Assembly (NCBI GenBank): GCA_026394495.1
Contig: JAPKYE010000012.1
Location: 83-64,082, forward strand
Source of the DNA: Methanobacteriota archaeon
GTDB lineage: Archaea > Thermoplasmatota > E2 > DHVEG-1
Direction: 5' to 3'
Length of the DNA: 64,000 nucleotides
Part shown: positions 46,202 through 52,803 of the stretch, in pieces
How positions within the stretch are numbered: position 1 is the first letter of the stretch
Layout of the letters: every line of letters starts with the position of its first letter
Made by a program: the position numbers and the translations under genes
The notes under the pieces: generated by a model
The model's database searches: none
Told to the model about the DNA's origin: nothing
The model's input: the letters and a program-made list of their open reading frames with translations, nothing else

Positions 46202-46618
46202 TCATATGTTTATCTTAAATTTTGTCTTCTCAGGATTATTTCTAAAAATATCTGTAATCCACTGCTTTATATCGTCTCTAACACGGCGAAAATCATCGAT
46301 ATCTAAAGGATCAGTAAATCCTTTATGAATAATTTTTTTTCCTGGGAAAAACGGACATCCTTCTTTTGCATTATCGCATACTGTCACAACATAATCAAAG
46401 TTTTTTTCTCTGAATTCCTCCATGCTTTTTGATCGGTGTACGGAGATATCAATCCCTATTTCTTTCATCACTGTAATCGCAAACGGATGAACTGATGTTG
46501 GCAGAAGACCCGCGCTATTAACTTCATAGCGGTCTCCATAAATATTGCGAAGTAAACCTTCGGCTATCTGCGAACGAGCAGCATTATGCGTACAGAGAAA
46601 CAACACCGTCTTCTTCAT
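46202..46618 (-). CDS. arsC: Arsenate reductase ArsC (LMW-PTP fold)
   Basis: LFLCTHNAARSQIAE, SAG, TVCD...CP, DP...FRRVRD. Confidence 0.82.
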   Translation of the reverse strand: MKKTVLFLCTHNAARSQIAEGLLRNIYGDRYEVNSAGLLPTSVHPFAITVMKEIGIDISVHRSKSMEEFREKNFDYVVTVCDNAKEGCPFFPGKKIIHKGFTDPLDIDDFRRVRDDIKQWITDIFRNNPEKTKFKINI

Positions 46619-47268
46619 TATTTGATCTCTTTTCTTTTTCCAGTCACCATGTACGTGATTTGCTCAGCCATATTACAGGCATGATCCCCGCAGCGTTCCA
46701 GATATCGAGCAATCATGATATAATGCGTGCAGATTGTGATGTTTTTAGGGTCCTCCATCATATATGTGATACATTCCCTGAAAATGGAATACCTAAGTTC
46801 ATCGACATCATCATCTCGCTCAGAAAAATCTTTTAACAAGGTAAGATCACCGTTTTGAAACGCTGTAAATGCATCATGGATCATTTTGCATACAATCTCA
46901 TTCATATGAGGGATACTAATAATTTTTTTAATATGGGGCCCTGGTGCTATTTCCTTTGTCAGATTAGCAATATCTTTTCCGTATCTGCCGATTCGATCAA
47001 TGGAGATAATCATCCTCAGACAACATGCAATCGTCCGCATATCTTTTGCCATTGGTTGATACAATGCGATTAACTGCAACGCCTCCTCTTCAAGATCGAC
47101 ATTCATCTGCGCCAGCTTCTTCTTCTTAGAAAGTACCCAATCTGCCTTTTCAACATCAAGAGTTTTCAACGATTCAACAGAAGTACACAGCATCGAGGTT
47201 GCAAGATTACCCAGTTTCAACACATCTTTTTTCAATCCTTCTAATTCTGTATGGAATTTCTGTACCAT
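46618..47268 (-). CDS. phoU: Phosphate transport regulator PhoU
   Basis: YQPMAKDMR, IDRIGRY, DDDVD, LERCGDHACN. Confidence 0.93.
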   Translation of the reverse strand: MVQKFHTELEGLKKDVLKLGNLATSMLCTSVESLKTLDVEKADWVLSKKKKLAQMNVDLEEEALQLIALYQPMAKDMRTIACCLRMIISIDRIGRYGKDIANLTKEIAPGPHIKKIISIPHMNEIVCKMIHDAFTAFQNGDLTLLKDFSERDDDVDELRYSIFRECITYMMEDPKNITICTHYIMIARYLERCGDHACNMAEQITYMVTGKRKEIK

Positions 47269-47279
47269 TTTACTTTCAC

Positions 47280-48044
47280 CTATCCAAATCTCCCTGTGAT
47301 ATAATTTTCAGTAAGCTCCTCACGTGGGTTTTCAAAGATCTGTTTCGTCTCACCGTATTCAATAAGTTTTCCCAGGTACATATACGCTGCGTACTCGCTC
47401 ACCCGTGCCGCCTGCTGCATATTATGAGTAACAATAATCACCGTATAATGCTGTTTCAGATCATAGATAAGATCCTCTATTTTTGCGGTTGCAATCGGAT
47501 CAAGAGCAGAACATGGTTCATCCATGAGAATAATCTCAGGTTCAATTGCTAGCGAACGTGCAATACATAACCTCTGTTGCTGCCCACCGGAAAGACACAT
47601 CGCAGGTTCATATAACCGGTCGTGTACCTCATCCCATAATGCAGCATCATGGAGACTTTTTTCTACGAGTCTATCAAGAATTTTTTTATCATTTACCCCT
47701 TGAACCCTCGGTCCGTACGCAACATTTTCATAAATGGATTTTGGAAATGGATTTGGTTTTTGAAACACCATCCCGACCTTTTTTCGTATCTCCACTGCAT
47801 CAACCGATGGCCCGTAAATGTCGTTCTCGTTGAAAAACACCTGCCCTGTGATCCTGCAGTTATTGATCACATCGTTCATCCTGTTGAAACAACGAATAAG
47901 CGTAGATTTTCCGCATCCTGAAGGACCAATCAGTGCAGTTACCTTGTTTGATAAAATGCTAAGATTAATATCTTGAAGTACGTGTTTTTCTCCATACCAG
48001 AGGTTTAGGTTTTTTGTTGTAATGATTTCTTTTGTTTTTATCAT
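47280..48044 (-). CDS. pstB: Phosphate ABC transporter ATPase PstB
   Basis: [57 protein letters not shown]. Confidence 0.97.
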
Positions 48045-48051
48045 ACAGTTA

Positions 48052-49995
48052 TCACCATTTCATAGTTTTTTTATAATGATTTCTTAACAGGATTGCGATC
48101 AGATAAAATCCAATGACGACAAGTAACAACACAAGGGCTGTTCCTGCTTGTTGCGCACGGGAATCTGGTACTGAGGTTGCTAGCATGTACAGATGAAATG
48201 GTAATGCATTGACTGAATCAAAAAGCGAAGAAGGAATAAAACCTGAAACGACAACTGCGGTGAACATGATCGGGGCTGTCTCGCCTGCTGCTCTGCCAAT
48301 CCCAAGGATTGCGCCAGTGAGAATACCTGGTGCTGCGGGAGGGAGAACCACTTTTTTTATCGTCTGCCATTTTGTTGCGCCAAGAGCAAGACTGCCTTCA
48401 CGTAGGATTTGCGGAACACTTTTCAATGCCTCTTCTGTTGTCCGTATGATTGTGGGAAGAATCATGAATGCAAGGGTGATCTGACCTGCAAGGAGTGAAA
48501 TACCCATTTTCAAATAAAGTACAAGAAACGCAAAACCGAACAACCCAAAGACAATCGACGGCGTCCCATTTAACAAATCTGCTCCTGCTCGAATGATTTT
48601 TGTTACTCTTCCCTCCCGTGTATATTCATTCAGGTAAATTGCTGCCCCTACACCTAAAGGCAACGCGATGAAAAGCGCACCGCCGACTAAATAAAACGTT
48701 CCGACAATCGCAGGAAAAATCCCTCCAGATCTGCCAAGGTTACTTGGCCATTCCGTGAGAAAACCCCAGTTTAATGCTCCGGCTCCGTTGAAGATAATAT
48801 ATGAAAGGATGATCCCTAAAAAAATAAGAACAAGAACGATCGCACTAAAAAGAGCGGTAAACGCAATTCGTTGAATATTTTTTGCAGAAATCTTTTTATT
48901 GAGATAATAACAAATACCAGCGACAACAAGTAATGAAATGGTGATGAGAACGCCAACAGCAACATATAATACACCAATAATTATTAGGATCATAACCCAG
49001 AAGAAATAGCGTTTTATCTTCTGATTAGTTTCATAGCGAAGTTTGAACCGTTTTTTTGATGAAGACGTATATTTCTCTTTGAGTCTGTTTAAAATTACTG
49101 TCGCGATGATATTAACAATGAGCGTGATGACCAACAGAAGAAGTGCGATGCCAAACAATGCATGGTAATGATCACTTCCGGTTGCAACCTCACCCATTTC
49201 AATTCCTAATGTCGCAGTAAGAGTTTTTATCGGCGCAAATACATTTGTAATCGGTGTCGGGATGAGTCCATAGGTTGGATTACCACAGACCATCATCACC
49301 GCCATGGTTTCACCTATGGCTCGACCCATTCCAAGAATGATCGCTGCGGTAATCCCTGAAAATGCTGAGGGGACAATGACTTTACTGATGGTTTGCCATC
49401 GTGTTGCGCTGAGTGCAAGTGAGCCTTCTTTGTATTCTTTTGGAACAGAGCTTATTGCATCTTCAGCTACGCTTGTGATTGTCGGTATCGCCATGATTCC
49501 AAGAAGGATTGATCCTGCAAGCCATGATTCTCCACTTGGTTGATTAAAACCGATGCGTAACCATGTTGTGAGTACTATTAACCCAAAAAAACCATAGACG
49601 ACGGAGGGGATACCTGCGAGTAATTCGATTGCGGGTTTTATGATTGCGCGCATTTTTGGTGAAGCGATTTCTGAGATGAAGATCGCGCTTCCAATGCTAA
49701 GAGGGATGGCGATTACCATTGCACCAAATGTAACCAGGAGAGTTCCAACGATAAGTGGAAATGCACCATAAAGCGGTGGAGTTCCGGTTGGATACCAACG
49801 GGAACCTGAGAGAAATTCCCATAGTCCAGCGGTTTGAAAAATCGAATAGCCATCTTGAAATAAAAAATATATGATTGAGAAGATAATGATAATCGATGAG
49901 ATGGCGGTGAGGAAAAAAATTGTTTTGATGCTTGTTTCTTTTATTTTTTTTAATGATATAAAAAAATGGAGGAAGCGTGGTAGTCTTCGACTCAT
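48052..49995 (-). CDS. pstCA: Fused phosphate permease PstC-PstA
   Basis: N-half [11 protein letters not shown]...[10 protein letters not shown] (PstC); C-half [14 protein letters not shown]...GRAAGETAP (PstA); one 647-aa frame. Confidence 0.92.
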
Positions 49996-50066: not shown

Positions 50067-50945
50067 TTAAATGAATTCATTCCAGTTTGAAATATCTCCT
50101 TTGTAAATTGCTTTCAGCTGTTCTAATGTAAGCGTGTCGACATAGGTGTTTTCAGGGTTCACGATAATTGCAATGCCGTCCTTTGCAATGATGTATTTTA
50201 CAAGGCCTAAGCTGCTTTCTGATGATTTGAGATCGCGCGATGACATGCCGATATCAACAGTGTCTTGTCCAACTGCGGTGATCCCGGCTCCTGATCCTGT
50301 GGAGCTGATTGTAATCGATACATCCGAATATATCTTTGAAAACGATTCTTTTGCTTTTTCAGCGATGGGAAACACTGTTGTTGACCCACCTATTTTTAGG
50401 GAACCGGTAACTGTTTTTCCCGAAGAATTATATGGCTGGCTGTCTACGAGAGGGACAAATCCTTCTTCTTCGACGATTGCTTGACCGTTGCTGCTTTGTA
50501 TATATTCGATGAATTCTTTTGCAGCTCCTGTCGCCTCTCCTTTTGTAAACATATAGAGATCTCTTGAGATGGGATATGTTCCTGCAAGAACATTTGCAAC
50601 AGTTGCTGAAATATTGTTAATTTTTAGTGCTTTTACGTCGGTATTGAGAAAGCCTAAGCCAACGTATCCGATGGCACCAGGTGTTTGTGATATTGTTTGA
50701 TAGATGCCGCCGTTTGAATTTTTCTCTTGTAGTGTCTCGCTAAAGTTTTCGCTGTTCATGACATGGCTGAAGAAAAACTCTCGTGTTCCGGATGTACTAT
50801 CTCTTCCTACAAGAACGATGGGTAGTCCTTCTGTTTTTTGTGTGCAACCACTAAATAATGATATGCAGATTACGCCGATGACGATGAGGCCTAATAACAG
50901 TTTTTTGAATTCTTTGTTTTTTGTTTCTTTGCTTATATTAATCAC
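50067..50945 (-). CDS. pstS: Phosphate-binding lipoprotein PstS, circularly permuted
   Basis: Lipobox-like FSGC; GRDSTSGTRE, PGAIGYVG, YPISRDLY come before GSTTVFP, GSGAG, DIGMSSR, DGIAIIVNP. Confidence 0.9.
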   Translation of the reverse strand: MINISKETKNKEFKKLLLGLIVIGVICISLFSGCTQKTEGLPIVLVGRDSTSGTREFFFSHVMNSENFSETLQEKNSNGGIYQTISQTPGAIGYVGLGFLNTDVKALKINNISATVANVLAGTYPISRDLYMFTKGEATGAAKEFIEYIQSSNGQAIVEEEGFVPLVDSQPYNSSGKTVTGSLKIGGSTTVFPIAEKAKESFSKIYSDVSITISSTGSGAGITAVGQDTVDIGMSSRDLKSSESSLGLVKYIIAKDGIAIIVNPENTYVDTLTLEQLKAIYKGDISNWNEFI

Positions 50946-50991
50946 CTGATATGGTGAAAATAAATATTAAATATATACTTTATCAACATAT

Positions 50992-51030
50992 ACTATATTG
51001 TTATATATTGCTAACATTTCTCAATATAGT
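50992..51030. promoter_or_regulatory. Inverted repeat in the divergent pstS / phoU-regulator intergenic region
   Basis: ACTATATTG (50992-51000) and CAATATAGT (51022-51030) are a perfect 9-bp inverted pair; TATATTG recurs at 51004-51010. Confidence 0.4.
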
Positions 51031-51082
51031 ACTATAGAAATACTTATATTTAAGATTCAATTACATCCCTTGGGAAAAAAAT

Positions 51083-52090
51083 ATGGACGTTCGACGTGTG
51101 CAAGTAACCGGTGGATCATCATATGTTCTTACATTACCTAAAGAATGGATCACCTCTATGAAAATCAAGAAAAACGACCCACTAAGTATATCCACGCAAT
51201 CTGATGGATCGTTACTTATCAGTTCAAAAATTGTTCAAGAATCTCAACAAAAAACAAAAGAAATCAATGTTGACCAGATTCATACACAGACGTATCTTCT
51301 AAGAAGATTAATCGGAGCATACATTGCAGGTGCAACCTCCATCAAAATAGTTTCCCGATCGAGAATTCCTTCTTCTGTTCGAATGACCATTCGGACATTC
51401 ACTCAGGCAAGCATTGGTCCCGAAGTTGTTGAAGAAACCGATACATGTATCGTACTAAAAGATTTACTCAATCCTTTGGAAATGCCGTTTGATAAAACCA
51501 TCAAACGCATGCATATCTTGGTGAAAGGAATGCATGAAGATGCAATGACTGCCCTTGAGACCGCAGACAAAGAACTTGCACACGATGTTGTTTTTCGAGA
51601 CAGTGACGTTGATCGTTTGAACTGGTTAATAGCCCGTCAGCATAATAGTATCCTACAAAATGTCAGTCTCGCAGTGAAAATGAACATCACCATGGAAGAA
51701 TCCTCCACATATTTTCTTATCAGCAGAATCATGGAACGGATCGGTGATCATGCGGTTCAAATTGCACAAAATATACTCCCGCTTATCGACGGAAAAGTAG
51801 ATAAAAAAATCATTCATCGTCTGCATGCAGCAAGTGCTCTTGCAGTAGTGATTTTGAATACAAGCATTAACTCGTTTTTCCGCGAAGATATTCAAGCATC
51901 AAACGAAAACATAGAGTCCGTTGAACGCTTGGAATCACTTTGCGAAGAAATCAACACGTTTGCGCTTCAGCAAAAAGGATCCATAGCACTCTCTATAGGA
52001 TATATCATTGAAAGCATACGACGCATAGGTGAATATGCAACCGACATCTCAGAAACAGTGATTAACCACGTAGTTGGAATACATACATAA
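51083..52090 (+). CDS. phoU: Archaeal phosphate uptake regulator (AbrB-like N-terminus + two PhoU repeats)
   Basis: RRVQVTGGSSYVLTLPKEW, DSDVDRL, ERIGDHA, RRIGEYATDISE. Confidence 0.92.
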   Translation: MDVRRVQVTGGSSYVLTLPKEWITSMKIKKNDPLSISTQSDGSLLISSKIVQESQQKTKEINVDQIHTQTYLLRRLIGAYIAGATSIKIVSRSRIPSSVRMTIRTFTQASIGPEVVEETDTCIVLKDLLNPLEMPFDKTIKRMHILVKGMHEDAMTALETADKELAHDVVFRDSDVDRLNWLIARQHNSILQNVSLAVKMNITMEESSTYFLISRIMERIGDHAVQIAQNILPLIDGKVDKKIIHRLHAASALAVVILNTSINSFFREDIQASNENIESVERLESLCEEINTFALQQKGSIALSIGYIIESIRRIGEYATDISETVINHVVGIHT

Positions 52091-52123: not shown

Positions 52124-52363
52124 TTATTTTTTCTTTGAGAACATCCGTTTGTCTTTGTTTTGTTCGTGAACAAGCCACAGAGCAATGGGGATACCCGTAC
52201 CTGAGCGGTGCATCACGCTTTGTGATAGTTCTTTTATTTCTTGTTCAGGTGTGTGATTGCTACATGGTTCACAGATGAACATTTTATCTTCAAACACCAG
52301 ACCTGATTTGTGTTCGTTCAGATCTATTATATGTTTACATTTTTCACAAGTTCTTTCCACCAT
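52124..52363 (-). CDS. Small Zn-finger-like protein
   Basis: CEKC...CEPC pairs in a 79-aa ORF. Confidence 0.6.
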   Translation of the reverse strand: MVERTCEKCKHIIDLNEHKSGLVFEDKMFICEPCSNHTPEQEIKELSQSVMHRSGTGIPIALWLVHEQNKDKRMFSKKK

Positions 52364-52449: not shown

Positions 52450-52803
52450 TCATCTGCCAAACTCATGGGGGGAATCAAACGAGCGCGTATTACGTTTAGC
52501 TAAATATTCCTGTAATCTCCTAATTTCTTCATCATATCGCTTCAGGATGTCTTCACCGAGTTGCGTTAGGTGAGAACCTCCTCCGTTTTTTCCGCCAGTA
52601 ACGGTTTCAACGATAGGACCTCCAACTGCATCGGACATCTCTTGGAGCTCAGACCATGCATGGCTATATGCCATCTTCATTGATTTAGCTACTTTTGTTA
52701 ACGAACCATATTCTTTAATCTTATGAAGTAATTCAGCACGACCTTGACCAATAATACATTGATCATTAATTTCAAACCAAAGTTTTGCTTTTACCTGAAA
52801 CAT
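52450..52803 (-). CDS. ModE-type winged-helix regulator (N-terminal domain only)
   Basis: IGQGRAELL, GSLTKVAKSMKMAYSHAW, GGKNGGGSHLT. Confidence 0.85.
   Translation of the reverse strand: MFQVKAKLWFEINDQCIIGQGRAELLHKIKEYGSLTKVAKSMKMAYSHAWSELQEMSDAVGGPIVETVTGGKNGGGSHLTQLGEDILKRYDEEIRRLQEYLAKRNTRSFDSPHEFGR

Follow-up and report, generated by a model that had tools for sequence, protein, structure and literature searches.

The gene analysed here, which we call pstS(cp), encodes a protein of the PstS family whose two halves stand in swapped order. It is the single PstS-like gene within the window, i.e. the whole 64,000-nucleotide (64-kb) stretch of archaeal (Thermoplasmatota) DNA that was analysed. 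Judging from its sequence relatives, it is an ordinary gene and typical of an extensive archaeal clade of permuted proteins; the permuted order, far from being a one-off event, is how a large subfamily in Thermoplasmatota and many Firmicutes is normally built. An earlier note on this stretch had put forward a natural circular permutation at this gene; the permutation is real, but it is not limited to this gene or genome, the architecture being family-wide and old. We have good confidence in the account as a whole, in which the protein would be a permuted Pst receptor belonging to an archaeal clade and derived by duplication and trimming, with probably independent origins of the permuted order in archaea and Firmicutes. 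In what follows, N and C denote the halves that are N-terminal and C-terminal in canonical PstS proteins, so that the canonical order is N-C and that of pstS(cp) is C-N. The features of the locus are collected in Table 1.

Table 1. Features of the pstS(cp) locus in window coordinates.
Feature	Coordinates	Strand	Details
pstS(cp), circularly permuted phosphate-binding lipoprotein (putative receptor)	50067..50945	-	292 aa, GTG start
Residues 1-34: basic N-region, hydrophobic helix, lipobox L-F-S-G-C	50844..50945	-	alignment; helix 5-32 in AF2 model
Residues 41-165: canonical PstS C-terminal half	50451..50825	-	aligns to 4Q8R 118-244; half-HMM 'C'
Residues 166-180: new linker, old C-terminus to old N-terminus	50406..50450	-	coil; Y172 invariant; pLDDT ~93-95
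Residues 181-290: canonical PstS N-terminal half	50076..50405	-	aligns to 4Q8R 3-112; half-HMM 'N'
pstC-pstA fused permease	48052..49995	-	647 aa, two BPD_transp_1 domains
pstB ATPase	47280..48044	-	profile match; conserved layout
phoU	46618..47268	-	profile match; conserved layout
AbrB/SpoVT (MazE-like)-PhoU protein	51083..52090	+	divergent; syntenic in all archaeal loci examined
Putative divergent AT-rich promoter/operator region	50946..51082	.	conserved sequence blocks

The first half of the mature chain (residues 41-165) reads PIVLVGRDSTSGTRE...GAIGYVG...YPISRDLY...EEEGFVP, and comprises the strand PIVLVGR, the anion loop with R48 and S52-G53-T54, the AIGYVG and YPISR motifs, the C-terminal helices and GFVP. 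The linker that follows is LVDSQPYNSSGKTVTGS. Residues 181-292 read LKIGGSTTVFP...GSGAG...DIGMSSR...DGIAIIVNP...YKGDISNWNEFI, with ISNWNEFI as the last letters; the canonical N-terminal half within them (181-290) carries GSTTV, GSG, IGMSSR, DGIAIIVN and ISNW.E, and the protein ends two residues further on. The breakpoint falls in the loop that leads, in canonical proteins, from '...NW.E' to the strand 'I.VV.R'; some five of the loop residues are gone.

The description of two halves exchanged within one intact frame agrees with the open reading frame, which carries the sequence quoted in the earlier note, and comparison with canonical PstS returns two matches in swapped order, as the note had anticipated. 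Against the canonical structure 4Q8R, residues 180-290 of the query align to chain positions 3-112 (i-E 1e-20) and residues 41-165 to positions 118-244 (i-E 7e-15), and the swap shows equally against 4GD5 and 4EXL; these matches are far beyond chance. Together with a junction kept in more than 130 homologues and a confident AF2 model that includes the linker, they bear out a natural circular permutation. Both family profiles score above their cutoffs, with 146.6 bits against 27 for Pfam PF12849 (PBP_like_2) and 232 bits against 206.6 for NCBIfam TIGR02136 (the PstS family), each score being a sum over two stretches. It is residues 175-290 that match the beginnings of the profiles (Pfam positions 4-125, TIGR02136 positions 33-154), the other stretch lying upstream in the protein, and collinearity with PstS profiles, where the GSTT half comes first and the SGT/YP.R half second, is absent. 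As Pfam and NCBIfam model the canonical order only, permuted proteins are matched in two pieces; they also carry vague names, such as “substrate-binding domain-containing protein”.

Relative to the canonical short PstS proteins (4Q8R and 4GD5 of Clostridium perfringens, 4EXL, and the archaeal P0140 and P0142), both halves are homologous, the ligand-loop motifs are the same and the transporter partners are the same, with identities of up to 55% to the archaeal canonical proteins. The differences are that the halves follow in the opposite order, that the termini and the tether are on the other lobe, that a new linker takes the place of the free termini, and that the 'NW.E-GG..-I.VV.R' loop is cut.

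A protein of known structure has the same chain order as pstS(cp). This is SP_2084 of Streptococcus pneumoniae, annotated as “phosphate-binding protein PstS 2” and deposited as PDB 4H1X, a structural-genomics entry released in 2012, to which query residues 42-290 align in a single HMMER domain (chain positions 10-263, 125 bits). The PDB thus holds S. pneumoniae PstS proteins of both kinds, permuted in 4H1X and canonical in 4EXL (PstS1), and both Pst systems of this species are reported to contribute to Pi uptake (PMC4913102). SP_2084 and its Firmicutes relatives resemble pstS(cp) in their permuted order, breakpoint loop, linker length, lipoprotein character and position as first gene of a pst operon. 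They differ from it in sequence (32-43% identity), in operon structure, in their longer tether and in the quartet analyses described below, which indicate a separate origin of the permutation. The earlier note had held that collinear alignment to a known PstS subfamily would refute a permutation. Such a subfamily does exist, in SP_2084/4H1X and many Firmicutes proteins, but its members are themselves permuted with respect to canonical PstS, so the permutation stands; the collinearity lowers the novelty only.

The permuted order is widespread. In a search of 5.8 billion proteins, 118 of the 120 best matches are proteins of about 290 aa with the permuted order and 55-93% identity; scored with half-specific HMMs, built from the clade alignment and used to read the order of N and C, the same 120 divide into 118 C-N and two N-C-N-C proteins. 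In a scan where each GTDB species was represented by a single genome, 16 complete permuted genes were recovered from Thermoplasmatota MAGs (L001-L016, 52-73% identity), plus two contig-truncated fragments and an odd tandem, L017. The last is a Thermoplasmatales ORF (L017:923-2263) with the order C-N-C...N and a run of N (scaffold gap) inside its second unit, and can be read either as two permuted PstS units in tandem or as a repeat that collapsed in assembly. About 60 Firmicutes species encode the same permuted order at 35-43% identity to the query, in Streptococcus, Anaerococcus, Aerococcus, Blautia, Ruminococcus, Clostridium, Tissierellia and Oscillospiraceae. In two Eubacteriaceae genomes, two permuted pstS genes lie adjacent in tandem (L020:7845-9847 and L021:1385-3396). 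Among cultured archaea, Methanocaldococcus bathoardescens has a permuted protein (WP_048201936.1). The 150 best 50%-identity representatives from a library of 1.84 billion proteins comprise 80 canonical, 42 permuted and 16 tandem (x2/x3) proteins and 12 others. Uniqueness to this genome was considered and rejected, given the same order in Thermoplasmatota and Firmicutes and the collinear 4H1X. No paper on permuted PstS or discussing 4H1X was found in the open-access literature, and this populous and structurally represented lineage is apparently undescribed.

In the window, pstS(cp) is followed by fused pstCA, pstB and phoU, with the AbrB-PhoU gene, a probable phosphate regulator, divergent from them. 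All archaeal loci examined have this layout, and so does Methanocorpusculum petauri, where the place of pstS is taken by a 566-aa tandem PstS-PstS protein. At Firmicutes loci pstC and pstA are separate and AbrB-PhoU is absent. The pstCA fusion is common to the Thermoplasmatota loci and M. petauri and is not found at the Firmicutes loci; in a few loci pstCA is split, possibly by frameshifts. At a Streptococcus caballi locus, considered in relation to the Pst1 and Pst2 systems of Zheng et al. (2016), no two-component system was found upstream. The intergenic blocks TTTCTATAGnnCTnTATTG and CTATATATAnCAnTATAGnATATGTAGATAAAGTATATAT (Table 1) recur at the majority of the related Thermoplasmatota loci that were examined, and are probably a TATA/BRE element and repeated operator half-sites. 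Two further ORFs on the minus strand lie near the AbrB-PhoU gene: one encodes a 79-aa Cys-rich protein with no Pfam family (52124-52363), and the other a 117-aa protein with a weak LysR-type HTH match (52450-52803; 25.1 bits, below the cutoff of 26.6).

The earlier note had suggested that the permuted gene perhaps arose by tandem duplication and trimming, and had proposed a search for PstS-PstS intermediates. Such fusions exist in two-unit and three-unit form, M. petauri included, and the suggestion fits them, the support being circumstantial. Tandem proteins among the matches and loci number 19 of N-C-N-C and two of N-C-N-C-N-C order, counting 16 among the 150 representatives plus P0002, P0051, L018, L031 and L032. 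Those compared directly with pstS(cp) (L018 of M. petauri, L031 and L032 of Anaerolineae, and P0121-P0137) consist of two or three complete units, are 520-880 aa long and keep their outer halves. Within them is an internal segment of C-half, linker and N-half, which is the arrangement of the protein in the window, and L018 is 52% identical to it in addition to sharing the archaeal operon layout. The inter-unit linker of the tandem proteins (5-13 aa) and the permuted linker (12-17 aa) are similar in length, and the linker sequences are very short and divergent. Most likely, pstS was duplicated in tandem and fused, and the outer halves were then lost, giving the permuted order, with the tandem PstS-PstS(-PstS) fusions as plausible surviving intermediates. 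With canonical, tandem (x2 and x3) and two permuted registers all extant, the family is a natural case in which permutation by duplication can be followed cleanly.

The second register is found in the single units P0229, P0244 and P0149 and in the tandem proteins P0123, P0126, P0139 and P0125. These proteins start with '...VKAL.I.G...YP..R', just past the second hinge, and end with '...AIGYVGLGY', so that each lobe would be contiguous in sequence and the hinge crossed once. A C-terminal hydrophobic anchor is present as well in P0149 and P0123. Also observed were ORFs of about 600 aa (L023:4331-6133, and L032:10080-11918 of the Anaerolineae isolate R24_97) that encode a C-N-C(partial) PstS with extra sequence and adjoin canonical or tandem pstS genes.

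For analysis across the different chain orders, the half-HMMs were used to split every protein into its N and C units, which were set in canonical order and aligned (231 columns). In this alignment the de-permuted query is 52-55% identical to archaeal-type canonical and tandem units (P0142, P0140 and M. petauri L018) and 36-44% identical to Firmicutes permuted proteins, while the latter, at 40-44% to the query, reach 47-54% identity to canonical proteins, among them C. perfringens 4Q8R and Desulfotomaculum P0184. An NJ tree of 205 de-permuted units places the archaeal and Firmicutes permuted clades apart in its point estimate, with deep-node bootstrap support of 0-6% for the large Firmicutes clades and of 41-77% only for the archaeal clade that contains the query. 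Given this weak deep support, the tree was replaced by a four-point, rate-independent quartet test, which is distance-based and uses four groups of ten sequences picked by similarity. Archaeal permuted and archaeal canonical proteins were grouped together, against Firmicutes permuted plus Firmicutes canonical proteins, in 99.8% of 10,000 quartets; 200 of 200 column bootstraps gave the same grouping, and each half alone agrees. Common descent of the permuted order in one clade with the SP_2084/4H1X type is thus not supported by these distance-based quartets, a result that is provisional. The quartets, the identities and the lineage-specific operon structure make it probable that two or more separate swaps took place, in archaea and in Firmicutes, with the cut in the same surface loop each time.

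Two other histories have to be weighed. The permuted groups all share the breakpoint, a linker of 12-17 residues and a Tyr about 10 residues before GST, and these common features could reflect structural convergence or shared ancestry. If ancestry, a single permutation would have produced both groups, and the PstS2-type proteins of Firmicutes would be orthologues of the archaeal clade, spread by inter-domain gene transfer, as the identical breakpoint loop and the full-length collinear alignment to 4H1X would also allow. We consider this improbable, since the quartets and all of their bootstraps group the sequences otherwise, the identities show the reciprocal pattern, and the operon is lineage-specific, with fused pstCA and a divergent AbrB-PhoU gene extending to Methanocorpusculum while Firmicutes pstC and pstA are separate. 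The other history concerns direction. The Methanocaldococcus permuted protein falls on the archaeal side, outside a group of Thermoplasmatota permuted plus archaeal canonical proteins, in 76% of quartets, and its placement makes the direction of change inside archaea, from canonical to permuted or from permuted to canonical, ambiguous. The permuted order could accordingly be ancestral in an archaeal lineage of Methanocaldococcus and Thermoplasmatota, with canonical and tandem forms such as that of Methanocorpusculum as secondary re-permutations. The 'QPY' linker motif that the Methanocaldococcus protein has in common with the clade of the window, and the existence of tandem permuted-permuted forms (L017, P0223 and P0134), point the same way. 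Here too we think the case unlikely, as there is one Methanocaldococcus-type representative with modest quartet support, and the canonical order is general across bacterial PstS and found in all other solved structures. Origin from canonical pstS by duplication and loss, probably in archaea and Firmicutes separately, remains our preferred reading.

An AF2 model of the protein, built on the alignment, has a mean pLDDT of 90.9 and a pTM of 0.78, with the linker value as in Table 1. When the PDB is searched with this model by Foldseek, 4H1X ranks first and far ahead of the rest (E 3e-29, TMq 0.79, TMt 0.90; rmsd 2.1 Å over 261 columns), and canonical structures match one half only (110 columns for 4GD5 and 133 for 4EXL). 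The modelled protein is bilobed, with a predicted chain trace identical to that of 4H1X. The fold would be that of an ordinary two-lobed type-II binding protein with a circularly permuted chain. On the model, the chain would start in the lobe of the R..SGT anion loop and cross the hinge into the other lobe, where the new linker of about 15 residues would join it to the normally N-terminal GSTT strand; it would then recross and end at the 'NW.E' helix. Such a path would leave one lobe contiguous in sequence and put both termini and the lipid or TM tether on the other. The lipobox Cys lies about 7 residues before the strand leading into the R48/S52-G53-T54 loop, in keeping with the earlier note's proposal that the permutation moves the membrane tether, in this case to the other lobe. 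This tether length of about 7 residues holds for the archaeal clade, against a median of 21 in Firmicutes permuted proteins. Export and tethering would proceed through Cys34 or an uncleaved helix, with the lipobox as the feature that suggests lipidation in Thermoplasmatota.

The model also offers a possible reason for the position of the cut. By DSSP, residues 44-96 form a beta-alpha-beta-alpha-beta element followed by a crossing to the other lobe, and residues 181-235 do likewise, so that the swapped chain again starts with strand, anion loop and helix, in the other lobe. This repeated order of elements, which fits textbook knowledge of the fold, plausibly explains why a cut here is tolerated and recurrent, and we entertain the idea that two ancient pseudo-repeats meet at the position of the cut. 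Comparison of the N-half and C-half profiles by hhalign gave no sequence similarity (probability 1.9%), and the pseudo-repeat idea therefore rests on the DSSP of the model and general knowledge of the fold.

The pattern at the level of the family, probably one of recurrent permutation at one loop, is more interesting than the gene itself. A broader reading would be that PstS has been permuted repeatedly at this loop, in archaea (Thermoplasmatota, possibly also Methanocaldococcus) and in Firmicutes, and additionally in the second register, with tandem arrays as the pool of intermediates and tether geometry as the object of selection; we find the grounds for and against accepting it about evenly balanced. 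If it is true, the tether would have been moved recurrently to the opposite lobe in single-membrane organisms, in parallel with MglB-2 (Tp0684) of Treponema pallidum, and by this analogy selection on tether geometry may be suggested. For MglB-2, a sugar-binding lipoprotein of type I with a circularly permuted chain, a “Type Ic/Cluster Bc” subclass has been proposed, and permutation of its type was noted mainly where the protein is membrane-tethered (PMC4990184). The two cases are alike in being natural circular permutations of an ABC-transporter binding protein with function kept, but MglB-2 has an unrelated type-I sugar-binding fold and a different breakpoint, which makes this an analogy and not homology. 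With the permuted PstS proteins, nature offers a way to ask if the docking of a binding protein on its ABC permease depends on which lobe bears the tether, and for the engineering of phosphate biosensors from PstS they show positions of the termini that are tolerated in nature.

In 30 members of the clade, R48, S52, G53, G187-S188-T189-T190, G217-S218 and S236-R237 are invariant, and T54 is present in at least 90%. Because these phosphate-loop motifs are invariant in the clade, pstS(cp) is presumed to encode a working phosphate receptor. Phosphate would be bound in the cleft through R48, S52-G53-T54, S188-T189-T190, G217-S218 and S236-R237, loops that we take to correspond to T10, S38, D56, R135 and S139-T141 of E. 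coli PstS. After binding, the lobes would close and the protein dock on PstCA for uptake driven by PstB, with regulation by PhoU and presumably by the AbrB-PhoU protein. For this genome the permutation changes little, the protein being in all likelihood the receptor for phosphate in a Pst transporter of the ordinary kind.

A gene of the low-molecular-weight phosphatase/ArsC-like type (LMWPc) lies at 46202-46618 on the minus strand, shares one base with the phoU start codon and probably lies on one transcript with phoU; it also follows phoU on related ENA contigs. With an ArsC-like/low-MW phosphatase fold encoded next to phoU, a change of ligand to arsenate, phosphite, phosphonate or another oxyanion comes to mind. 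We consider such a change very unlikely, as the TIGR02136 score is above the PstS-family cutoff, the phosphate-loop motifs are kept, the gene sits in a complete pstCAB-phoU operon, and the best structural relatives are phosphate-binding proteins.

That the gene is an assembly chimera, or the decaying and non-functional remnant of a tandem pstS-pstS gene, has the unusual order in its favour and nothing further, and deserves practically no credence given the 93% identical protein that three independent ENA contigs carry beside the same neighbours, the same junction in more than 130 homologues, the invariant ligand loops, the confident fold prediction, a signal peptide and lipobox directly ahead of the first strand, and flanks of 71 and 137 nt in which no remnant coding sequence was found. 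Misassembly at the junction, which the earlier note had named as a possible refutation, is thereby ruled out, 118 of the 120 best matches sharing both order and junction. In an alignment of 30 sequences, Y172 and G181 at the junction are invariant, as are G33 and C34 of the lipobox, and the linker keeps a length of 12-17 aa in 134 archaeal members.
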